Source: a virus (lineage: Duplodnaviria > Heunggongvirae > Uroviricota > Caudoviricetes). Taken from it: DNA of 32,383 nucleotides. This document shows, one piece after another, positions 1-24,661 of this stretch (positions are counted from its first letter, which is position 1; each line of letters opens with the position of its first letter). The stretch spans positions 1-32,383 of the IMG/VR virus record IMGVR_UViG_2861069343_000002. One strand, written 5' to 3'. The notes under the pieces were generated by a model. The model was not told where the DNA came from. It saw nothing but the letters and a program-made list of their open reading frames with translations, and ran no database searches. A program made the position numbers and the translations under genes.

Positions 1-780
1 ATGGAAAACAAAAAAAGTTGCGTTTATTGTAAAAGCACAACAAACTTAACTAAAGAACATATTTTCCCTTCAGCAATAATTAAAAGTTTTAATGTTGAAC
101 TTTTATCGATGACTGATAAGAGTGACTACCATTTTAAAGGCGATCCAGTTATTGGGGATGTATGCGCTGAGTGTAATAATGGAATACTGTCGCAACTAGA
201 TGCTGATTTCGTAACTTGTTTTAAAAATCAGATGCTAACACCTTTAAAACCCGGAAATGAAATAACATTTGAATATGAATATGATTTATTATTACGTGAA
301 CTTCTAAAGATATCATATAATTCAGCGAGGGCATCAAATGGTGGTTATAATGCCAGAGCCATTTTAGAAAAATACATACCATTCATAATCACTGGCAATA
401 AAAACAAAAATGTAGATAGTATAATTCTTTCCCTTCTAATTGTAACTTCTGCAAATATGGTTAATCTGGAAACTGGTAAACATGAAGAGCCTTTAGAACC
501 ATATCTATTAAGAAGCGCATCGATTGATGGTTTAAACCTCAACCCTAACAATTATATTGTTAGGATGGTTGCATTTAATAGCTTTTGGTTTTTTTTGTTA
601 ATTCCAAAGAGGCCAGTTACATCCAAAGTGAAAAAAGAATTTTGGGATGAATTTAAAAGAAAAAATCATCTGCATGGAGTTTTGTTAAAAAGAAACAACA
701 CGTCAATAAAGATCACAAAAGATAAAACGACATATTTGCATCCTGACTTAATAGAAAAGATGTGGCGAAAAATAAAGTAG
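1..780 (+). CDS. HNH (His-Me finger) endonuclease-domain protein, 259 aa, AT-rich cargo gene
   Basis: ORF begins with ATG at window position 1. N-terminal CVYCK...TKEHIFP...CAECNNG spacing is typical of HNH nucleases. Visibly AT-rich compared with phage structural genes (by eye, not computed). C-terminal half has no recognisable motif. Confidence 0.5.
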   Translation: MENKKSCVYCKSTTNLTKEHIFPSAIIKSFNVELLSMTDKSDYHFKGDPVIGDVCAECNNGILSQLDADFVTCFKNQMLTPLKPGNEITFEYEYDLLLRELLKISYNSARASNGGYNARAILEKYIPFIITGNKNKNVDSIILSLLIVTSANMVNLETGKHEEPLEPYLLRSASIDGLNLNPNNYIVRMVAFNSFWFFLLIPKRPVTSKVKKEFWDEFKRKNHLHGVLLKRNNTSIKITKDKTTYLHPDLIEKMWRKIK

Positions 781-1040
781 AACAAATTTTCCAGTTGACA
801 ATACCAAAAATAATTAATGGGGACTAGGTTAAATGACGCAGTGGAACAAACTCACCAGAGAAGAAAATTAATGGTATTAATGTTCAATGTGTTCATTACT
901 GTAACCTAGCCCCTACTAATTTATTCACTATATTGCTGAGTATGTCCGCATCTGGCACATAGCAGCCCTAGAGATAGGAGCACACAGTCATAGATGGTCG
1001 GTGGGAGGTAGTGAAAATCCTCTCATACAATAAATACGTA

Positions 1041-1130
1041 AAATCGATAACGGCAAGAGACCTTTCAATACTCGCACTATCGGAAGTTAACCAACCTGCC
1101 ACAGCACGTTCTCGCATACACGTGTCTGCG
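1041..1130. repeat. Direct repeat copy A (~90 bp), diverged copy of 3298..3388
   Basis: Manual alignment: both copies begin AAATCGATAACGGC and share CGCACTATCG and GCATACA blocks; roughly 75% identity by eye. Confidence 0.6.
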
Positions 1131-1194
1131 CCCCCCCCCCTCCATCAATCATAATCAGATAGAGCCAAAAAACAAAAACAAAAACAAAAAAAAC
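1131..1194. repeat. Homopolymeric C10 tract (1131..1140) followed by a (CAAAA)n-like A-rich microsatellite (1166..1194)
   Basis: Read directly: gcg-cccccccccc-tcc, then caaaaaacaaaaacaaaaacaaaaaaaac. Confidence 0.85.
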
Positions 1195-1391
1195 ATCAAG
1201 TTACAACAATAAAAAAGACGCCAGTCAACCGATGATGAAACAAATGAGGATACGCAAAGGAGCCGCAGCTCCCTAGTAATATGAAAGCCCAGACCATCAA
1301 AGCAGAAGACTGTTAAAATATCAAAAACCCGTTATCCGCTGAAACACAGTACTACTTTGTTTAAGTTAACGATATTGCCTCAAGGGCAGTT

Positions 1392-1925
1392 TTAAAATAC
1401 GGTGAATACATCACACAGGTCCGATAAAACTTCTCGACAAACATGCCTATGATCGCTGAGCACAGAGTTTATATGCTGAAGTGTTATATACTCTTCATAC
1501 CATTCTTGTGTTACAACATTTTTCAAATTATAGAGCCTGTGAAATGACTCTTTTGCCTCCTGCGAATTAACAAATTGTTGATTATGCCCCATTAACCTCA
1601 TTAAAAACCCCTCCAAACAAAATGGTGAGGATTGAATGATTTGTATGTCTCTATTTCTAGCAGCAGATAGAGCATCAGTAGGTATTGCAAGGTCTGAGTC
1701 AATAAAAACAACTCTTTTATCAAAACTACCAGCATGGTTTATAGCAGCCATTATAGCTGATTTCGGTCCTCCACCGCCGGCATCATCTAACCTAACACTA
1801 AACCCTGCAGTCCTAGTTGTTAAGAGTCGTTTTAAACAATCAGCAAATCTTTTATCAGTAATTCCTTCGCACATCAAAAGCTTAGTTCGTTCAACTCCAC
1901 GCTTTACACGTCTGGGCTTCATCAT
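1392..1925 (-). CDS. RloB-like / TOPRIM-like small protein, partner of the upstream AAA ATPase
   Basis: 177 aa. N-terminal basic stretch then LLMCEGITDKRF (CEGxT[ED] motif as in RloB/DUF4276), later VVFIDSDLA acidic motif. ATG overlaps the ATPase stop (ATGATGA junction at 1922..1925), indicating translational coupling. Confidence 0.5.
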   Translation of the reverse strand: MMKPRRVKRGVERTKLLMCEGITDKRFADCLKRLLTTRTAGFSVRLDDAGGGGPKSAIMAAINHAGSFDKRVVFIDSDLAIPTDALSAARNRDIQIIQSSPFCLEGFLMRLMGHNQQFVNSQEAKESFHRLYNLKNVVTQEWYEEYITLQHINSVLSDHRHVCREVLSDLCDVFTVF

Positions 1926-3196
1926 AAGTCTGGTACTCCTCCAAAAGCACCAGCTAAATATTTAGCCGCAATATTATCGTCGACTCGCGCCTCACTGGAT
2001 GGAAAATCATCAAGTCGATAACATTCACTTCTATTGAATTTTTTCTCAGTAATCAACACACGGTACTTACCCAAATAATTTATCAATTCGGGTTTATGAC
2101 AAGTAAAAATTAACTGTGTATGTAACGGGTTTGTTTCTTTACTGATAAACAACTCTAATATAGGTTTAACCATATGTGGGTGCAAATCATCACCAAGTTC
2201 ATCAATAAAGCATGCTGTTCCTTTTTTCAGACATTGCATAATATTATGCAATCTGATAAATGCACTTTGTGTTCCAGCAGATTCGAATGCAAAGGGTAAC
2301 TCAAACTTGGAACCATCTTCTTTTTCATGAATACCATTTATAATATAATAAACATCCTTCTCACCGTTTATATCAACTTTCTCTTCTTTTTCTATAGTTA
2401 TATCATCTAAACCTAAATCCCATTTGCGTAAAATATTTTTTACACTTTTAAAGGCTACTGGATCTTTATATAAATCCTCCGCTGTCGCACCTAAATCTCC
2501 ATAATCATAGCTATACCTTCCCATAGCATTTACATTAGTAGTACTGCTCATTTTTTCGGCTATATCTATAGCCAAAGGAACACCTACACGGCGAGCTGCA
2601 GAAATTATACTTGTATTAGCAGGAGTTCTCTTACCCTCTAAAAGACCTAAAGGAAAAAGTTCTGCTTTTTCAACATAATCATATTTAATTGTTTTTAACA
2701 GTTCTTCAACTTCTTGATGACTAAAATCATCACTACAATTATTTAACTGTTTCTCATAATTTTCTTTATCCAACTTCCTTTTAAAAACATAGATATTTTT
2801 ATTTTTCTCATTTCTTACATACAATTCTTCTTTAATGACAAAATGGTCGCAGGCCGTAACAACATATGTGTATACTTTTCCATCTAAAACAAAACATATT
2901 TTAATCATACCTGGTTTTGTAAAAGGCCGATTAATGTTTAAATACAGATAATCAGTTACTTTTGCTGGTATAGACCAAAAAAACCAACTCAAGAAAGACA
3001 TTGGTTTAAGGAGTGTTGTCTTACCGGAGGCGTTCGCCCCCATGATAGCAGTAATCAGATTGACCTTGTGTCCATCTACATCTACCCACAGTTCTTTTTT
3101 CTTATCTTTAGCTGTAGTAGTTAGGTCTACGAACCCACCTTCATCTTCAAAGCTACCGATATTCTTAATCTCATACCAAAGTATAGCGTTAGCCAT
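1922..3196 (-). CDS. AAA family ATPase (ABC/AAA_21-like), candidate abortive-infection/defense ATPase
   Basis: 424 aa. Walker A GANASGKTT near N-terminus; Walker B plus H-loop ACFIDELGDDLHPH near C-terminus. Strong SD (AAGAGGGG) before ATG at 3196. AT-rich. Confidence 0.7.
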   Translation of the reverse strand: MANAILWYEIKNIGSFEDEGGFVDLTTTAKDKKKELWVDVDGHKVNLITAIMGANASGKTTLLKPMSFLSWFFWSIPAKVTDYLYLNINRPFTKPGMIKICFVLDGKVYTYVVTACDHFVIKEELYVRNEKNKNIYVFKRKLDKENYEKQLNNCSDDFSHQEVEELLKTIKYDYVEKAELFPLGLLEGKRTPANTSIISAARRVGVPLAIDIAEKMSSTTNVNAMGRYSYDYGDLGATAEDLYKDPVAFKSVKNILRKWDLGLDDITIEKEEKVDINGEKDVYYIINGIHEKEDGSKFELPFAFESAGTQSAFIRLHNIMQCLKKGTACFIDELGDDLHPHMVKPILELFISKETNPLHTQLIFTCHKPELINYLGKYRVLITEKKFNRSECYRLDDFPSSEARVDDNIAAKYLAGAFGGVPDL

Positions 3197-3244
3197 AACC
3201 CCTCTTTTTATACAAAAAAATGTTCAAAATCGCCACATGCTGAG

Positions 3245-3274
3245 TTTATAGCAGGAAGCGTATATAGCAAGCAA
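3245..3274 (-). promoter_or_regulatory. Candidate sigma70 promoter for the ATPase/RloB-like operon
   Basis: On minus strand TTGCTT-N18-TATAAA (plus-strand aagcaa at 3269..3274 and tttata at 3245..3250), about 50 nt upstream of the ATPase ATG. Confidence 0.3.
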
Positions 3275-3297
3275 AAAAACATAGACATGATTTAGTT

Positions 3298-3388
3298 AAA
3301 TCGATAACGGCCGGAAATCATTCAATTCCCGCACTATCGAACGTTCACCAGCCAACCGCAAAACGTTATTGCATACAACGTTTCTGCG
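3298..3388. repeat. Direct repeat copy B (~90 bp), diverged copy of 1041..1130
   Basis: See copy A. Lies between the stf stop and the ATPase promoter. Confidence 0.6.
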
Positions 3389-3586
3389 GCATAATCCCAA
3401 TGATTACTCCCTGACAGGATTTGCAGGCCACTCAATATCAGGTGCAGTTGATGTATCAACACGGTTCAGCAACACCCGATACTTTTTCCAGGCTTCCAGC
3501 AACAAGGTTTCTTTCTCCGTTGCGATCTCCAGCTCAACAACAGTCTGAACGTACCGGGAACAGCCTCCTTCAGAGCTTGAAGGATA

Positions 3587-6500
3587 TCAATGTTCGCTTC
3601 CTGTTAACTGCCGGACAAGTGCAACCAGTTCGCTTACCTGATTTTCCAGAGTGCTGATCCGGGTGTCTGCTGTTGCCAGATTTTCACGTAGCGTTGTGTT
3701 TTCCTCTTCCAGCGCGGTAACGCGATCATCTGTTTCACGGGCGACCTGAACAAGTAAACCCGTCACGGCGGCGTAGTCAACATTAAGATAGCGCGTTTCT
3801 TCGCGTAGCTCGTTGCCGTCAACGGTCGGGCCTTGCAACTCTTCACCGTAATGAGTAAACGATCCCACAGCTTCTGGTATCGCCTCCATTACTTCCTGTG
3901 CAATAACGCCAGCATAAGGCATCCCGTTTTCCCTGAGCGTGTAGGTGTATCCGTTCATTTTACGGATTGCTTTCGTCGCGTCGCTGATAACGAGAATATC
4001 GTCTTTAAGGTCGCGGTCTGATGACTGATTCAGCGTTGTGCAATTAATAGCGCCATTTACATCAAACAACTGGCCTGCTGACGTTTTTTGCGCATAAAAC
4101 AGATACGCAGCAGACGTGCCAACCTCAAAAACGTTTTGTCGAGTACTGGAACCCCACACCCTGATACCAACTGGTAGTTCTGAATTACCTGAATTAAGTA
4201 AAGCAAAACGATTGCCAGTCCCTGTTTGTTTTCTAATTACTAAATCGGCAGTTGAGTTAACCTCATCTTTGTTGATGGTTAGCGCCTGTGCTGTAGCACC
4301 GTTGACAGTACCGCTTAGTAGTTGCACCGCGCCATCATCGCCATTTAACAGCACTTGAGCGCTGCTTCTGTGGTTTTTAAGGCACAACATTTTTCCCGTG
4401 TTTTTCGATGTACCTACTGACCACGCCGAATTGGTTCCAGTGCTATCAACACCGCGCACAGCACAATTCATACTACTGTAATCTGACGTACTCCCCAGCA
4501 CATCAACACGCCCGCCGCCTAATTTTGATGGAGTCGTCGAGGTTAACGACCTGACGGTTACATCCTGATTCCATCCTGAAACAACTACCTGACTCCACTC
4601 CGTCCAACTTCCATTGACAACAAAGCGAACGTATATGCGTTTTGTGTCGCTGCCAATCAGCGTTTGCATGATCGCATAATCTGAACCCGTAGTTTTACGA
4701 GTAGATTCTACACGTAGCAAAAAGTTACCGCTTACGCCGTCAGGCTTATTGGTAATATATGCACCACCTGCGACAGTTTTGCATTGATAGTATTTAACAG
4801 ATCCAGCCACTGTATTAGCAATGATCAAGTCGTTTAAATCAATAGTCTTGTTGTCAATGGTTTCCGGCTCGATAGATCCCGCCATACCTGCGTTAAATGT
4901 GGCAAGGTCAGAAAAGGTTGTTTTACCGCCTACCGTCACCCCGCTATCGAGTTTTGCTTGTGTGATTACTTTGCTGTTTTTTGTGTGGTCAGAATAACTA
5001 CCAAAATACAAATCACCGTCACCAGCTATACCCAGGTATTTTTGATCAACATCATCAACCTTAAACCCAATGGACAAGTTTTTAATTGTGTTGTTGCTCG
5101 TTAAAACCAAAGGCGTATGCTGAGATCCTTTGATGCTTACCGTAGTGTTATCGGAACTGGTGCTTGTGTTTGCAAATTCTGCGGTGGCTGCGCTGATTTT
5201 GTAAGTTATTTTTAGATTGCGGGCCTCAACCCTCCCGTCGTGGCGAACAATAAAATCACCACTTGATTCACCTTTTGTGTTTTTCGCCCTGATGTGGATT
5301 TCGCCAAGTGATTCGTTGTTTTCAGGCGACCAAACAACGCCGCGCTCGCTTCCGTCGTTGTTCATGAACCACAGATGAGCGGTTCCTTTTGCTGATTTTA
5401 GCCTGATAGATGGCGTTTCTTTCAATATATCAAGATCACCAGACATAACATCGCCGGATTTTTTCACCTGCGCATCGTTAGTTACGTTGCCAAGTCCAAC
5501 ATCCGATTTCGACGGCTTGTTTGCCGAGCCGTATAGCTCATTGATGCTAAAAGTCCCGTTGTTAAGCCGGGCATCGTTGCCGGCATAGATCTTAATCTTC
5601 GCGGTTGAGTAGTCGATATTGATCGCTGACCACGTATCGCCGCACCGCGAGAATATACCAGAACCGTGGCTATAAATGGTCGCCGTGCTTCCGGTCGGCT
5701 TATCACCGCGCCAGAAATGACCACCTTTGTCACGCAGAGCTTTTAAGATCTCTACATCGCTCATCTTGCCGTTTGTTGATATCCCGCTACCGCCAAGACC
5801 GAAAGCGCCTGTAAGCATAGCATTAGAAAGACCCAAATCTGCTTTAGTCGGCTTGTTTAACTGGTCGTAAATCCTTACAACGGGGCTTTCAACATATCCA
5901 GAAGGCGCGGCGGTTTGCTTAACAAATCCGTCTGGAATGTATAATTCCGTGCGTGCCGTCTGCGCCAGTACCGCAACCTTTGCGCCGTTGATAAATGCAC
6001 GCTGGAAGGCCCAAACCTCAATAAAGCCATCATCTTTAACCAGGCCGTAACGCATTTGCATGCTATTGATTAGCCCGGTTGGCCCTAAACGGCGTATACT
6101 CAGGTAACGAGATACATTATCAGCAGTAAGCGAAGAAGGCAGACCGCGCGCCGAGATCTCGATAAAGTCAATGTTTCCGTAAGGGGAGCCGTAGTCACCG
6201 CCGTTAGTAACCATTAGCGTTACATGGCAATTGTTGCTTCCGGGATCGGAAAGTTTCGCGATCTTTATGTAAAAAGACTCATTACCAGTAACAACGGGCC
6301 AATCGTATTGCGTCATCGGGCTGACGAGTCCCCCGACCTTGTCGAGATATTCTTTCGCCTTGTTCTCTGACGCTTTAGCGTTGGTTTCGCTGACCTTTGC
6401 TGCTGACTCACTATTTTTCGCGTTGGTTTCTGATTTTTTGGCTGCTGTCGCGGAATTTGCCGATGCAGTTTGTGAGTCTGCTGCCGCCTGTGCGCTGTTA

Positions 6501-7345
6501 TCCGCATTCATCTCAGACGTTTTTGCGGCCTTCGCGGAATTTCCTGCCGCCGTTGCCGAGGAAGCTGCACTGCCGGCGCTCGAGGCTGCGCTCGTTTCTG
6601 ATGATTTTGCCGCCACTTTTGAAGCCGACGCATCCCGGGCTGAGGTGGCAGCTTCTGACGCTTTCGTGGTCGCGGTGGATGCAGAAGTGGCCGCAGATTT
6701 TTGTGATGCTGCGGCATTCGTTTCTGACGTTTTCGCTGCACCGGCACTGGTGGCTGCCGCGCTTTTTGAAGACTCTGCAGCGGCAGCACTTTTTGATGCT
6801 TCAGTAGCCTTTGTTGATGCCGTTCCTGCGCTGGAAGACGCTGACTGAGCCGACGACGCGGCCTGTCCGGCTGACGTGCTGGCTGCGCGTGCGGAGTCCG
6901 CAGCATCAGTCGCATGGGTTGCCGCCTCACGGGCTGATGTGCGGGCATCACTGGCTGACTTCTTCGCGGCTGCCGTGTTCTGTGCCACTGCGGACGCGTT
7001 ACGCGCCACCTCTTCCACCATCAGTTCAAAGCGGCGCAGTGCCTCCGGACGGACATCATCCTCCGTCATGGCACCGAGAAAATCATTCAGCGTACCCGGT
7101 TGTGAGTCTTCATACACGGTGATGGTCCCGGCATGCGATGGCGGGAAGCCTTCCACCAACAGAATAACGCTGTACTGACCGTACTCAACGTCCATGCTGT
7201 AACGCCCGGCTTCATCCGGGTTTTCTGAGGCCACTGTGTTCACCACCACCGTGGTGCTGTTACGTTTTGCTTTCAGCTGGATTGTACAGTTCTGTACCGG
7301 TTTACCTGCACCGTCTTTCAGTACACCTGAAATCTTTACTGCCAT
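3587..7345 (-). CDS. stf: Side tail fiber protein (lambda Stf-like N-terminus, A/S/T-rich repeat region, C-terminal peptidase S74 intramolecular chaperone domain)
   Basis: N-terminus MAVKISGVLKDGAGKPVQNCTIQLKA matches lambda Stf N-terminus as recalled. Long Ala/Ser/Thr-rich repetitive segment. C-terminal SDRDLKDDI...NGYTYT...GVIAQEV motif of self-cleaving S74 chaperone. ATG at 7345 preferred over the in-frame GTG at 7351. Confidence 0.85.
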   Translation of the reverse strand: MAVKISGVLKDGAGKPVQNCTIQLKAKRNSTTVVVNTVASENPDEAGRYSMDVEYGQYSVILLVEGFPPSHAGTITVYEDSQPGTLNDFLGAMTEDDVRPEALRRFELMVEEVARNASAVAQNTAAAKKSASDARTSAREAATHATDAADSARAASTSAGQAASSAQSASSSAGTASTKATEASKSAAAAESSKSAAATSAGAAKTSETNAAASQKSAATSASTATTKASEAATSARDASASKVAAKSSETSAASSAGSAASSATAAGNSAKAAKTSEMNADNSAQAAADSQTASANSATAAKKSETNAKNSESAAKVSETNAKASENKAKEYLDKVGGLVSPMTQYDWPVVTGNESFYIKIAKLSDPGSNNCHVTLMVTNGGDYGSPYGNIDFIEISARGLPSSLTADNVSRYLSIRRLGPTGLINSMQMRYGLVKDDGFIEVWAFQRAFINGAKVAVLAQTARTELYIPDGFVKQTAAPSGYVESPVVRIYDQLNKPTKADLGLSNAMLTGAFGLGGSGISTNGKMSDVEILKALRDKGGHFWRGDKPTGSTATIYSHGSGIFSRCGDTWSAINIDYSTAKIKIYAGNDARLNNGTFSINELYGSANKPSKSDVGLGNVTNDAQVKKSGDVMSGDLDILKETPSIRLKSAKGTAHLWFMNNDGSERGVVWSPENNESLGEIHIRAKNTKGESSGDFIVRHDGRVEARNLKITYKISAATAEFANTSTSSDNTTVSIKGSQHTPLVLTSNNTIKNLSIGFKVDDVDQKYLGIAGDGDLYFGSYSDHTKNSKVITQAKLDSGVTVGGKTTFSDLATFNAGMAGSIEPETIDNKTIDLNDLIIANTVAGSVKYYQCKTVAGGAYITNKPDGVSGNFLLRVESTRKTTGSDYAIMQTLIGSDTKRIYVRFVVNGSWTEWSQVVVSGWNQDVTVRSLTSTTPSKLGGGRVDVLGSTSDYSSMNCAVRGVDSTGTNSAWSVGTSKNTGKMLCLKNHRSSAQVLLNGDDGAVQLLSGTVNGATAQALTINKDEVNSTADLVIRKQTGTGNRFALLNSGNSELPVGIRVWGSSTRQNVFEVGTSAAYLFYAQKTSAGQLFDVNGAINCTTLNQSSDRDLKDDILVISDATKAIRKMNGYTYTLRENGMPYAGVIAQEVMEAIPEAVGSFTHYGEELQGPTVDGNELREETRYLNVDYAAVTGLLVQVARETDDRVTALEEENTTLRENLATADTRISTLENQVSELVALVRQLTGSEH

Positions 7346-7354
7346 ATTCACCCC

Positions 7355-20565: not shown

Positions 20566-21574
20566 CAAACGTTCTCCCTATTACTTGGCCAATTATAGGG
20601 GGAACAGCATTACCAATCATCGTTCCTAACTTTTGGAATGAAAAAGGCGTATTTTTTCCAATAAATTTATAATCCATAGGAAAAGATTGTAAAATAGCAG
20701 CTTCACGCAAAGTTATTGCTCTATTTTGCTCAGGATGTCCGAATCGCCCATTACCATATCCATAACATTGGGTAGTTATTGTAGGACTAGTATCGTCCCA
20801 AACCATCCGTCCATAAACACTTTTATAGGTAGCACCTGAATGCTTTTTATGGCAATCCGCTCTAATTTCTTCAGGCCAATCATCCCACGTACCACCTGGT
20901 AAAGAGTGCAAGATTCGTTTAAGGTTAATATCCCTTAATTTAGGCGAACGATGCAATGGATCACTTTCGAGTTTCTCCCCTGCACCTATTTTTGGCAACT
21001 GACCAATAGCATCCTTTACTGTAACTTTACGGCTTACTTTTTTTTGATCAAGGCTGATTGGCCCCAATATGGACCCAATTAGAATTAATCTACGTCTATT
21101 TTGAGGCAAGCCATACTCGGAACATTTTACAACGTCGTACCACAGATGATACCCAAGAGTCTTTAATACACTAACAAACTCTTCAAAAACCTTATGATTT
21201 CTAAGTTGAGGAACATTTTCCATAGTCACAAGCTCTGGCATGACATCACTTACAATCCTCTGAAACTCAGATAAAAGACGCCACTTTGTATCATCTTTTC
21301 TGCTATTTGGATTACGATACTTGGAAAACGGTTGGCAAGGGGCACAGCCTGCAAGTAATCTAATATTTCCTTCCTTGAACATAGCAGACACATCGCTGGA
21401 TTGCAGTTCAGTAACTGACTGGTTAATGAACTTCGTTAAGGGATTATTGCTCTCAATAGCGAAACGGCAGGACTCATCAATATCAATGCCATGAGAAACT
21501 TCAATCCCGGCTTTTTTTAGCCCAAAAGTTAAGCCCCCTGCGCCACAAAAAATGTCTACTGCTTGAATGTTCAC
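20534..21574 (-). CDS. DNA cytosine-5 methyltransferase (Dcm-like), first gene of the late operon
   Basis: Motif I DIFCGAGG, motif IV GCAPCQPFS (catalytic PC), motif VI ENV, motif VIII QNRRR, motif X GNAV; GTG start at 21574 with SD GGAGAA. Confidence 0.85.
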   Translation of the reverse strand: MNIQAVDIFCGAGGLTFGLKKAGIEVSHGIDIDESCRFAIESNNPLTKFINQSVTELQSSDVSAMFKEGNIRLLAGCAPCQPFSKYRNPNSRKDDTKWRLLSEFQRIVSDVMPELVTMENVPQLRNHKVFEEFVSVLKTLGYHLWYDVVKCSEYGLPQNRRRLILIGSILGPISLDQKKVSRKVTVKDAIGQLPKIGAGEKLESDPLHRSPKLRDINLKRILHSLPGGTWDDWPEEIRADCHKKHSGATYKSVYGRMVWDDTSPTITTQCYGYGNGRFGHPEQNRAITLREAAILQSFPMDYKFIGKNTPFSFQKLGTMIGNAVPPIIGQVIGRTFVRHVEGINIR

Positions 21575-22024: not shown

Positions 22025-23020
22025 TCAGGCCAGCACGCCAATTGCCAGCGCACGATCGATAAAACGAAATATCAGCTCCAGCTGGGAGCCATACATCTCT
22101 TCAAATGCCACGGTATCTGCATGCAGCTCGTCGTGATGCTTTCTGCACAAAGGCAACACAAAGAGGTCATGCGCTTTTGTACCCATTCCACCCTGACCGT
22201 GACCTATCAGGTGGTGGGGATCATCAGCAGGCTTTCCACAACATGCACACGGCTGTGTCTTAACCCAGCGCGTGTACTTTTCATTAACCCAGCGGCGACG
22301 TTTTGGGCGTAACATAAAAGACTCCGGCGACTCCGGATCCACTTTCAGCGCCAGCACCTTTTTCGCCTTATCCTGGATGATGCTGGTAGCAGGAACCGAA
22401 GGCACAAGGTCACTTTCCCGGGTGACAGACGGCACAACAGGCTTCGGTAATCTCAGTGCCTTACGGGCTGCACTTTCCGGTAAGGCATCCGCCAGGTCAT
22501 TACGAATCAGCCACCAGCACAGTTCCGGCATTGTCACAACGTGACTGTCATCAAAACCGAGATCCCGACGCACAACAGACAACACCCAGCGGGCACAGTT
22601 ATCCGTTGCCATTGATTCCAGCCGTTCCGTGAACTGATCACGCAGCTGGTTATCGCAGTGCCAGCACAGACGGATTGCACCCGGAGCGTGTCGCATTGTG
22701 GTCATGTTCTCGCTGTGCCAGTCGGAATGAGGCCACTGGCAGCCTTTTTCACGAAGTAACCAGCTTTCAAGACATTCCACGCCACCAGCACGACGGATCA
22801 CTGCCTCATTGCGGAACACGGCCCAAACGGCAGGATCATCCGCCAGCGGTTGTGACGCCGCGGGAACGGCACCACTGGCGAAAGATGAATAATGCTCCGG
22901 CTCAGGCTCCAGCAGGACACGCCCCTGCATAAACAGGGGCATCAGCTCTGAACCGGGCCTGAACAATACGATCCCCATACGCGGGGCAATTTCAGGGGTC
23001 AGTAGTGCTCTCACGGTCAC
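22025..23020 (-). CDS. DUF968 protein (YdfU-like) with C-terminal HNH-like zinc motif
   Basis: C-terminus QPCACCGKPADDPHHLIGHGQGGMGTKAHDLFVLPLCRKHHDELH; GTG start at 23020 (alternative ATG 22978). Confidence 0.65.
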   Translation of the reverse strand: MTVRALLTPEIAPRMGIVLFRPGSELMPLFMQGRVLLEPEPEHYSSFASGAVPAASQPLADDPAVWAVFRNEAVIRRAGGVECLESWLLREKGCQWPHSDWHSENMTTMRHAPGAIRLCWHCDNQLRDQFTERLESMATDNCARWVLSVVRRDLGFDDSHVVTMPELCWWLIRNDLADALPESAARKALRLPKPVVPSVTRESDLVPSVPATSIIQDKAKKVLALKVDPESPESFMLRPKRRRWVNEKYTRWVKTQPCACCGKPADDPHHLIGHGQGGMGTKAHDLFVLPLCRKHHDELHADTVAFEEMYGSQLELIFRFIDRALAIGVLA

Positions 23021-23371: not shown

Positions 23372-24313
23372 TCACCCCCTGAATCCTGCCGGGATCTGGC
23401 TGTAGTCCACGCTGTCGTAACTGGATTTGAAATACGGGTCTTCGCGTTTTTCTGTGTATGTGCTGATGGACGGCGATAAGCGCAGGGAAAGCTCATCCCA
23501 TTTTTCCCGCAGCTTCGACGGGCTGAGCACGTTACGGCACCAGAACGGATCGCGGCTGACGCGGCTGTACATCTCGCAGATTTGTTTGTGAGTACGACCA
23601 TCCTGCACACACATCAGGCGAATTTCGTTTGCCCAGGCTGTCCAGTTCGGTTCTTTGGGACGAACCACCTCGCCGTCACATTCGGCGGCCTGCTCGTACA
23701 GGGCAATGATTTTTTTCCAGAGCCACTGTGCGCAGGTCAAATCATCCTGCGTTCCCCACTGGCGCTTTTTAGGGCTGAATACAACCGCATCAGGATGGCG
23801 AGTTAAAAAATCCTGTTCAGCCGTCTGCGTGTCCGGTTGCGAAGCGTCCGGACGAGAAGGTTTTTTATCTGACGGATCATGTTTTGATTTTACTGACGGA
23901 TCCCCGCCAGATTCTGACGGGTGAAAACCCGCTTTTTTGCCAGATTTCGACGCATCAAATTTTGACGTGTCAGATTTTGATGCGTCAGATTTTGACGGGT
24001 CAGAATCTGACAGTTGAGAAAATGCCGCTGCCTGAAGCTTCGCAACGTTAAGCTGATAAACATTCGACGCATTGCGGTTACCCTGGCGACGCGCCTTACG
24101 CGTTAACCAGCCTTCTGCTTCCAGCCGTGCGATAGCCGTTCTGACGGTACTCATCCCCGCGCCAATCTGACGGGCAATAGTTTCAATTGATGGCCAGCAC
24201 ACACCTTCGTCATTACTGAAATCAGCCAGGCGGGCCATAATTGCCACGCTGGATAATTTCATGCCTGACGCAGCGCAACCATCCCATACATAGCCGGTTA
24301 ATTTAGTGCTCAT
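23372..24313 (-). CDS. Replication initiator (lambda O-like function) with winged-helix N-terminus and iterons inside the coding sequence
   Basis: N-terminal HTH/winged helix (SIETIARQIGAGMSTVRTAIARLEAEGWL); central SKSDASKSDTSKFDASKSG repeats encoded by tandem approximately 15-bp DNA repeats; SD AGAGGT before ATG 24313. Confidence 0.6.
   Translation of the reverse strand: MSTKLTGYVWDGCAASGMKLSSVAIMARLADFSNDEGVCWPSIETIARQIGAGMSTVRTAIARLEAEGWLTRKARRQGNRNASNVYQLNVAKLQAAAFSQLSDSDPSKSDASKSDTSKFDASKSGKKAGFHPSESGGDPSVKSKHDPSDKKPSRPDASQPDTQTAEQDFLTRHPDAVVFSPKKRQWGTQDDLTCAQWLWKKIIALYEQAAECDGEVVRPKEPNWTAWANEIRLMCVQDGRTHKQICEMYSRVSRDPFWCRNVLSPSKLREKWDELSLRLSPSISTYTEKREDPYFKSSYDSVDYSQIPAGFRG
23890..24013. 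repeat. Iteron array (putative phage replication origin) inside the initiator gene
   Basis: Tandem approximately 15-bp units (CAGATTTCGACGCAT, CAAATTTTGACGTGT, CAGATTTTGATGCGT, CAGATTTTGACGGGT, CAGAATCTGACAG) plus upstream CAGATTCTGACGGGT. Confidence 0.55.
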
Positions 24314-24661
24314 GACCGACCTCTATTTCCCTGAATTTACGACGAAACTGTTCGAGCGGGCTGAAGCACTCATGCTCATAGCCTTCACGGAGGTAGATAA
24401 CCCGTTGTGTTTCCGGCTCCCAACGAATGACTCTGACGGGCACTCCGTAGTGATCTTTGAACCAGCGGTTAACTTGTCGCAAAGGACTGTCTCCTTCTGC
24501 CGGTTGAAATCCCCCACAGCCCACTCAGCAAAGCTGTGGGTTACAATTTCCCTGTCACCTGGTACATTTACTGCATAGCAATACTCCACCTTCGCTTTTC
24601 CACCCGGTACAGGAAGCGCAATCAGTTGCGAGCGACGGTAGTGTGTTGTTAAACTGTTCAT
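24303..24661 (-). pseudogene. Small early gene split between two overlapping frames at a G5 tract (frameshift mutation or programmed frameshift)
   Basis: ORF 24661..~24500 (N-terminal part, ATGA-coupled to CII-like gene) and ORF 24524..24303 (C-terminal part, overlaps initiator start) overlap at GTGGGGGAT (plus-strand C5 at 24511..24515); one extra G would fuse them into a ~126 aa ORF. Confidence 0.3.

Follow-up and report, generated by a model that had tools for sequence, protein, structure and literature searches.

A linker idea for the mosaicism of lambdoid phages is said to go back to Susskind and Botstein. Lambdoid mosaics are made by relaxed homologous recombination (HR) by Rad52-like phage recombinases, as has been shown experimentally (PMC3945230), and short conserved stretches, described as 'HR traces', are found at the breakpoints of such recombinants (De Paepe et al. 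2014, PMC3945230). Lambdoid phages such as HK97 and HK022 also carry morons, genes of foreign composition that sit between backbone genes together with terminator-like hairpins (Juhala et al. 2000, to the extent that PMC4104026 presents that work). In P2-like phages and P4, fixed slots of the temperate genome hold diverse anti-phage systems (Rousset et al. 2022, PMC9122126). Here we describe a non-coding junction element of ~95 nt that belongs to lambdoid prophages and that occurs in two diverged copies, A and B, in a stretch of 32,383 nucleotides of a Caudoviricetes virus (IMG/VR record IMGVR_UViG_2861069343_000002, positions 1 to 32,383; the whole of this stretch is called the window below). 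The two copies bracket a two-gene cassette that is predicted to encode an AbiL defence system. We propose, with a probability of roughly 0.68, that the element is the terminal non-coding module of leftward accessory and early-left units, that it is a preferred point of crossover and that it forms the boundary of a moron slot.

An earlier inspection of the letters alone (the sequence-only reading) had noted diverged direct repeats in the same orientation, with about 75% identity, at 1041-1130 and 3298-3388. The repeat is present as described: a MAFFT alignment of these two segments has 69 invariant columns out of 91 with one 1-nt gap, and blastn aligns A with B at 77.7% identity over 94 nt (E 3.4e-15, database of ~1.1 Mb). 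The full unit reaches slightly further on both sides than had been noted (Table 1), and the ungapped extension of the repeat runs over 1038-1120 and 3295-3377 with 77% identity, which makes it the longest direct repeat in the window. Both copies have in common the 14-mer AAATCGATAACGGC, which occurs exactly twice in the window (at 1041 and 3298) where 0.02 matches would be expected, and which reached two occurrences in none of 100 shuffles. Pairwise alignment, which the sequence-only reading had named as a check, hence puts the similarity beyond chance, and low-complexity likeness of A and B was ruled out by the blastn E value together with the 14-mer test. When the window was searched with nhmmer and with a covariance model, each returned exactly copies A and B; the covariance model gave A 82 bits and B 113 bits, the best family member scoring 135. 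A and B are diverged paralogous copies of the junction element. Copy A is the most diverged full member of the family, with a median block identity to other members of 0.83 (family median 0.92) and a fold no better than that of shuffled sequences (z +0.35). Copy B has fold z values of -2.45 (+ strand) and -3.2 (- strand); its hairpin is of the lambda-tfa type (dG -12.8), identical to that of L091 and 95% identical to the copy 3' of lambda tfa.

The family was assembled by a pattern scan of viral contigs, which gave at least 120 loci, with 63 unique full copies among the matches listed. Its members consist of two parts. The first 59 nt, which we call the block, are near-invariant and C-rich on the window + strand (consensus GTAAAATCGGTAACGGCTGGAAATCATTCAATACTCGCACTATCGAAAGTTCACCAGCC), and most of the variation in the block falls within the 10 nt after TAAAATC. 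The last ~36 nt form a hairpin of 12-14 bp with a 9-nt loop, of which many sequence versions exist. The helix is kept in spite of this variety: in a covariance-model alignment of 68 distinct copies over a 14-pair helix, 88.7% of the hairpin cells are paired, whereas sliding the partner column leaves 23-54% paired. Compensatory changes on both sides occur in five pairs (48 cells), and the observed score was reached in 0 of 500 shuffles. The stem has a dG of -12 to -23 kcal/mol in most types and is followed by T-rich tails such as TTTTTCTTTTT, CTTTTTAC and TTTCATTTA on the + strand only. At least four T within 7 nt after the stem are found on this strand in 38 of the 68 unique copies and on the - strand, where the stem is followed by TTGGCTGG, in none. 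In most family members the hairpin looks like a Rho-independent terminator. Given the T-tail on the + strand, an intrinsic terminator would have the orientation of dinI, int and ea31 and face the end of the tail operon; both the activity and its strand are predicted from these sequence features. Compared with shuffled sequences, canonical copies have the better fold (z -3 to -4). A possible first stem-loop, GGCUGG...CCAGCC around an inner hairpin, agrees with 94% of cells; it shows no compensatory change in the alignment and is thus unproven. Candidate motifs for IHF, Int arm-type sites, a Chi-like site (GCTGGTGA, - strand), boxA/boxB and attC, judged by eye, were partial or not conserved across copies and were discarded.

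The element lies at the point where the tail-fibre operon ends and the leftward accessory genes (dinI, int/sib, ea31) converge on it. Copy A matches mEp460 at 22893-22994, where the element starts 8 nt past the dinI stop codon and ends before the convergent tail-fibre gene, and HK97 at 20947-21041, where a single element directly follows the annotated sib/tI hairpin and stops short of tfa. In lambda the match extends over 24163-24294; a full copy lies at 24163-24260 between ea31 and ea47, and a hairpin-only copy at 22565-22616 directly after tfa, so that ea47 is bracketed in the same way as AbiL. The records consulted for the three phages leave the element unannotated. In a megablast search, the left edge of copy B is precisely the point from which homology with thousands of E. 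coli prophages extends, on into tfa. At least one copy is present in 5380 of 5426 complete E. coli genomes (median 2, maximum 9), and when one genome of each species was scanned, natural copies came to light in Escherichia, Shigella and Citrobacter only. Copies in Streptomyces, Enterococcus, Pseudomonas and other genera were rejected as contamination, being 100% lambda DNA on low-coverage contigs. Lambda contamination or spike-in (tfa, ea47, ea31) was also seen in assemblies labelled Chromatium, Shewanella and Neobacillus, among others; the contigs concerned are L129, L135, L141, L147, L152, L162, L171, L172 and about 15 short ones. Rfam has no match on the element, either at the gathering threshold or at E<=5, and gives in the window only tRNA-Thr and a sub-threshold IS009 match. 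Searching the literature by sequence strings returned unrelated matches only. We found no paper or annotation on the element; as the coverage of the literature was limited, this is absence of evidence rather than proof of novelty.

About 99% of E. coli carry a fossil copy between ecpE and ykgJ (L125 6001-6085; in K-12 MG1655, L128, at ~304,221-304,311 on the minus strand), which has 92-94% identity to the phage copies. Upstream of it is a 3' remnant of dinI, the ATG of ykgJ follows 45 nt past the hairpin, and a tfa-like remnant lies beyond ykgJ. These neighbours suggest that ykgJ occupies the same cargo slot at the end of an ancient prophage. In K-12 the published small RNA (sRNA) EcsR2 (PMC4350180) maps to this tfa-like remnant beside ykgJ (yagU-ykgJ intergenic region, L128 7606-7854), and its primer for 3' rapid amplification of cDNA ends (3'-RACE; PMC4350180) matches the remnant sequence. 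EcsR2 was considered as a possible transcript of the element itself and was rejected on account of this neighbouring position. Evidently, tfa remnants beside the junction element can be transcribed as small RNAs.

What stands on either side of the element varies widely. Among 117 full copies, the 30-nt flanks fall into 11 upstream and 28 downstream classes, which occur in 42 combinations. In 58 of the 117 the element directly follows the dinI stop codon; the other upstream classes are a conserved flank named U4, the 3' end of a P4-type integrase, HK97 sib, an insertion sequence (IS) and others. Downstream one finds several tfa ends, pin invertase, a small membrane protein and effector-like genes, among others. 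The hairpin versions tend to track the downstream, tail-side module, and the block is common to all. As the element is the sole sequence common to otherwise unrelated modules on both sides, it could provide the homology patch for module swaps. Judged from the sequences, the flank pattern is the one expected of a homology patch where modules reassort, and it agrees with the relaxed homologous recombination demonstrated for lambdoid mosaics (PMC3945230).

Two natural recombinants show how such exchanges might proceed. Strain F467 shares with the window, at 99.7% identity, a 259-aa open reading frame (ORF), U4, copy A, AbiL and the copy B block. The match to the window is exact up to and including AACCGCA at the beginning of copy B's hairpin; F467 then continues with a different hairpin version, to which pinE, invertible tail fibres and the baseplate genes of a Mu/e14-like tail are linked. 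On the left side F467 differs from the window as well (IS1, tra genes). The breakpoint of this module switch is inside copy B. In the viral contig L041 the 259-aa ORF (its 3' end) and U4, with 99.6% identity to window 781-1040, are followed by CGTAAAATCGATAACGGC, the first 18 nt of the element, which are of A type; the remainder of the block is of B type (98% identity), and after it come the hairpin of F467 type and then pin. This is the product expected from A×B recombination in an F467-like genome, and L041 thus looks like a precise deletion of the cassette by crossover within the shared 14-mer. The reverse direction is much less parsimonious, because an insertion would have to split one element and regenerate both of its halves.

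The origin of copy A can be approached through what follows it, a run of ten C and a degenerate remnant of a downstream module (Table 1). Elsewhere this module lies directly 3' of the element and contains a ~53-aa hydrophobic ORF on the - strand that ends at the hairpin and could encode a membrane peptide. Copy A seems to have brought a piece of its former neighbour along, which suggests that two prophage ends were joined and that the cassette did not enter by site-specific insertion. We infer from the sequences both the order of events by which AbiL came to stand between two copies and the route of the exchanges, which would be homologous recombination by RecA or phage Red/RecT. The annotation pipeline PGAP has a 'capsid protein' pseudogene with a frameshift running over the element and the ~53-aa ORF (L127 3987-4137 and many E. 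coli records), which is probably a mis-annotation. The C run (1131-1140) and an A-rich, (AAAAAC)n-like run (1166-1197) in the remnant are possibly slippage-prone tracts.

The sequence-only reading had seen a two-gene cassette of an ATPase and an RloB-like protein, with its promoter, between the repeats. Two co-oriented ORFs are indeed bracketed by A and B, the second overlapping the AbiLi stop by 4 nt, and the first is an ATPase of the AAA_21 family. The label 'RloB-like' is better replaced; because Pfam finds no family for this ORF, the AbiLii assignment by PADLOC is preferred. From the adjacency of AbiLi and AbiLii, the cassette is predicted to be an AbiL defence system. Its GC content is 28-39%, compared with 46-60% in the tail genes. 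The promoter inside the bracket was not borne out, as a consensus scan of the region upstream of AbiLi found no sigma-70-like site; a candidate, TTGCTT-N18-TATAAA, was read there by eye only. Following AbiLii there is no canonical terminator.

Database comparison, the other check that had been named, showed that further pairs of copies flank different genes. The cargo in these pairs is lambda Ea47, PD-T4-3 (PADLOC 3.8e-140), a SAM-dependent methyltransferase with a tfa fragment, or a 271-aa protein. Two copies, 1.0-1.6 kb apart, were found in 16 of 125 sources, and the other 109 have a single copy without cargo. The tail-side copy in two-copy loci other than the window is partial, consisting of the hairpin and up to ~12 nt of the block, or in L116 is diverged and near-full. 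All four other cargo types point toward the tail module, so that the second hairpin could terminate the cargo transcript. In the window, by contrast, both copies are full length and AbiL lies on the opposite strand. As a test of the moron slot, a cassette of deviant GC content is present in the window and absent between the same flanks in L041. The notion of a cassette-exchange hotspot, put forward from the sequence alone, thus survives as recombination at the boundary and as different cargo between different copy pairs; a swap of cargo between the same two copies is conjectural. That the repeat is carried along with defence cargo, as had also been suggested, is not supported: it belongs to the phage backbone and is mostly a single copy without cargo. 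A further two-copy arrangement was seen in L108 (2366-5486), where one copy is full, the other is the hairpin only, and the two stand in inverted orientation around a tail-fibre segment of the pin-invertase kind that contains two pin genes. The invertible region may have been inverted or duplicated there.

In the mechanism that we propose, the hairpin after a conserved 3' untranslated block would close the leftward units (dinI, int/sib, ea31) that converge on the tail operon. The common element would at the same time be a patch of homology for swapping tail modules and accessory genes between prophages, and the gap between the element and the tail-fibre end would serve as the slot for cargo of the moron type. 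In the thrW prophage this slot would be filled by the AbiL operon, with resident copy B on the tail side and decaying copy A, with the remnant of its former neighbour, on the far side. Several observations weigh against this proposal. The covarying hairpin and the + strand T-run of most members agree with the conserved regulatory or terminator sequence that had been suspected from the letters, but the window copies themselves have no T-run: the hairpin is followed by CATAATCC in B and by the ten C in A, so that neither resembles an efficient intrinsic terminator. The counts of G·U and A·C in the stem (31 versus 30) favour no strand. A terminator or a homology patch leaves unexplained why the 59-nt block is so nearly invariant, and why the 5' boundary is sharp and the same within ~2 nt in at least seven unrelated upstream contexts. 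As AbiL is transcribed opposite to the other four cargo types, the picture of an insulated moron fits it less well. Finally, the deletion form is represented by the single contig L041 and by none of the 5426 complete E. coli genomes.

It could be that the element is primarily a functional RNA, an ~85-nt sRNA on the window + strand. Such an sRNA would either have its own promoter, whose -10 would be the TAAAAT of the 5' boundary, or be cut out of the 3' untranslated region of dinI, int or cargo transcripts; the repeats that surround AbiL would then be two copies of its gene, and recombination a by-product of its conservation. We regard this as doubtful, even though canonical copies fold as two adjacent hairpins (z -3 to -4), the second of which is a terminator with a U-tail in many types, and even though the block stays almost invariant amid unrelated flanks. 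The conserved region begins at TAAAAT or TATAAT in at least seven unrelated contexts, with the variable 10 nt next to it as a possible spacer from -10 to start; the sole one-sided changes in the first stem-loop are U·G on the + strand (34 cells), and the core-genome copy between ecpE and ykgJ has been kept at 92-94% identity in ~99% of E. coli. However, neither a conserved -35 nor an extended -10 is found in any flank class, the first stem-loop is without compensatory changes, and Rfam holds no family at either threshold. Two T or fewer after the stem are found in 23 of the 68 unique copies, both window copies among them, and copy A folds no better than shuffles. In the portion of the EPEC RIL-seq tables that could be consulted, there is no ecpE-ykgJ intergenic entry. 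The known prophage sRNAs PasB, AgvB/AsxR, EcOnc22/23/24 and EcOnc31 were considered, the EcOnc ones having seemed likely from their size or position, and were set aside, since the PasB probe is absent, AgvB/AsxR lie elsewhere, at PR', and the EcOnc22 and EcOnc31 loci in Sakai, the two EcOnc sites checked, contain no copy. A related and equally tentative idea is that block and hairpin together are a selected functional unit, either an ~85-nt RNA from SOS- or induction-driven transcripts or an invariant recombination linker. If the RNA form were true, it would be made from the 3' ends of dinI and int transcripts and possibly also from the ecpE-ykgJ copy; the linker form would amount to a homology-based analogue of integron attC for swapping tail modules and defence cargo.

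Two other explanations appear very improbable to us. The repeats might be the sites of a dedicated system that mobilises cassettes, for example attC-like sites, the ends of a transposon or of a miniature inverted-repeat transposable element, or the att sites of a small integrative element. In keeping with such a system would be the ~95-nt direct repeats around a foreign low-GC cassette, the cargo junction at B, which coincides exactly with the 5' boundary of the element as in every other context, and the differing defence cargos between copy pairs. Yet the 77% identity runs along the full length, with no short identical crossover core in unrelated arms, the ends of the element show no terminal inverted repeats or target-site duplications, and the alignments contain neither of the attC core motifs, RYYYAAC and GTTRRRY. 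No recombinase regularly accompanies the element (the neighbours vary between dinI, P4-type or lambda-type int, pin and IS, and there is no IntI), 109 of 125 loci have one copy and no cargo, and the tail-side copy is the hairpin part only in most two-copy loci. Copy A with the remnant of its former neighbour points to joined prophage ends instead. Just as improbable is an origin of the similarity in a dinI or tfa coding fragment that is decaying, or in a chance likeness of AT-rich DNA, with no function of its own. The element does follow directly on the dinI stop in half of the loci, the fossil keeps a dinI 3' remnant upstream, and copy A is clearly degenerating. But chance is excluded by the E value of 3.4e-15 and the 14-mer test, the element lies outside the dinI and tfa reading frames, and no frame is conserved: a frame on the - strand is open in B and has a stop in A, and the differences between the copies are non-synonymous. 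The hairpin covaries, and conservation of the block across unrelated contexts in the 63 unique copies mentioned above exceeds that of a neutral relic. We therefore hold to a terminal module that doubles as crossover point and slot boundary as the most probable explanation.

Table 1. Position and strand of the junction element copies and of neighbouring features in the window.
Feature	Position	Strand	Remarks
259-aa ORF, low GC (31%)	1-780	+	sub-threshold weak N-terminal HNH_5 match
U4 flank, ~100-nt conserved block before element	942-1037	+	79-84% matches in lambda and at least 10 other loci
Junction element copy A, distal	1038-1130	+	block 1038-1096, weakened hairpin 1097-1130
C10 run (1131-1140) and degenerate remnant of downstream module	1131-1290	-	72-82% matches in L024, L054, L082, L116
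AbiLii, 177 aa	1392-1925	-	PADLOC AbiLii 1.5e-9
AbiLi, AAA_21/AAA_15 ATPase, 424 aa	1922-3196	-	Pfam AAA_21 5e-19; PADLOC AbiLi 1.1e-65
AbiL operon upstream region	3197-3294	-	cargo junction exactly at copy B 5' boundary
Junction element copy B, tail side	3295-3389	+	block 3295-3353, hairpin 3354-3389
Truncated tail-fibre-assembly (tfa) remnant, 135 nt	3404-3538	-	RefSeq pseudogene in AR437
Side tail fibre, 1254 aa, C-terminal S74 chaperone domain	3587-7351	-	Pfam phage_tail_N 1.9e-72, Peptidase_S74 9e-12
Integrase ORF	29762-30925	+	adjoins tRNA-Thr, 26 kb from repeats
tRNA-Thr(CGU) thrW	30940-31015	-	Rfam match
proA	31130-32383	-	

The window is a lambdoid prophage in the tRNA-Thr(CGU) gene thrW. 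In E. coli AR437, whose sequence is identical to the window, the opposite end of the prophage adjoins the yagP/pao/yagU/ykgJ region. Leftward from the tail genes the order is a C-terminal fragment of J, lom, the side tail fibre, the tfa remnant, copy B, the cassette, copy A and the 259-aa ORF. The side tail fibre is the final intact gene in the late operon. It has an S74 chaperone of its own, and tfa is cut down to a short remnant, a combination which would fit a separate assembly chaperone that is now dispensable. The tfa remnant has 87-96% similarity to the tfa 3' ends of lambda and mEp460, and its stop codon is 14 nt away from the copy B hairpin. The sub-threshold Rfam IS009 match falls on this remnant (window 3447-3647, - strand) and scores 92.5 bits against a gathering score of 117.

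At the other end of the arrangement, a PADLOC search with the 259-aa ORF was without match; this ORF accompanies U4, copy A and AbiL in F467 and U4 with a single element in L041, and it may be another defence or accessory gene. An inverted repeat 3' of it, GGGGACTAGGTTA ... TAACCTAGCCCC (819-831 / 902-913, spacer ~70 nt), has no match in Rfam and could be a terminator or a structured RNA. The U4 flank precedes the element in about a quarter of the loci, including lambda (24295-24390). It contains a mini-ORF of 12 codons with a polyproline run, which starts just beyond the 5' edge of the element: MRGFSLPPTDHL in the window (988-1026, - strand) and MREFVPPPTDHL in lambda (~24,270-24,310, + strand). 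Its conservation is at the DNA level.

As a kind of feature, the combination of module-boundary homology, terminator and moron slot is an ordinary one that apparently has gone unannotated. The element is present in lambda, in HK97 and in almost every E. coli genome, yet it is absent from Rfam. It offers a precise landmark at the sequence level for the accessory slot at the tail-fibre end of lambdoid prophages, and defence and other moron cargo should turn up in scans for it, above all for two copies within a few kb of each other, as AbiL and PD-T4-3 did. It also supplies natural examples of mosaicism and of cassette loss through a patch of ~95 nt, down to a crossover interval of 14 nt.

The closest likeness is found in the two flanks of lambda ea47, which have the same element in the same orientation to tfa and bracket one accessory gene. 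They differ in that the tail-side copy is the hairpin only and in that ea47, which has no known function, is transcribed toward tfa. The sib-tI hairpin of lambda and HK97 is likewise a non-coding hairpin at the end of a leftward int unit, and in HK97 the element starts right after it; the element shares no sequence similarity with sib, lies outside attP and is far from att in many prophages, the window included. Integron attC sites resemble it as structured repeats of ~60-120 nt between gene cassettes. They differ from the element, which has no core motifs and no IntI, is conserved in sequence and not only in structure, and occurs mostly as single copies. With the 'HR traces' of De Paepe et al. 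(PMC3945230) the element has in common that a short conserved stretch lies at recombinant breakpoints; here it is tied to one specific locus, combines a block with a covarying hairpin, is extremely prevalent and has a fossil in the core genome. Compared with lambdoid morons, as far as PMC4104026 describes them, the foreign composition, the position at a tolerated site between backbone genes and the flanking by terminator-like hairpins are alike, and so is a cargo that gives the lysogen a defence function, which for AbiL is predicted from the genes alone. In the classic definition presented there a moron has its own promoter and terminator, whereas here the promoter is putative and the 'terminators' are copies of a backbone element. 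The hotspots of P2-like phages and P4 satellites (PMC9122126) are alike as fixed slots in temperate phages, with conserved flanks between which diverse anti-phage systems take turns. Those slots are set by flanking protein genes; the slot described here is lambdoid and is set by a non-coding repeat.

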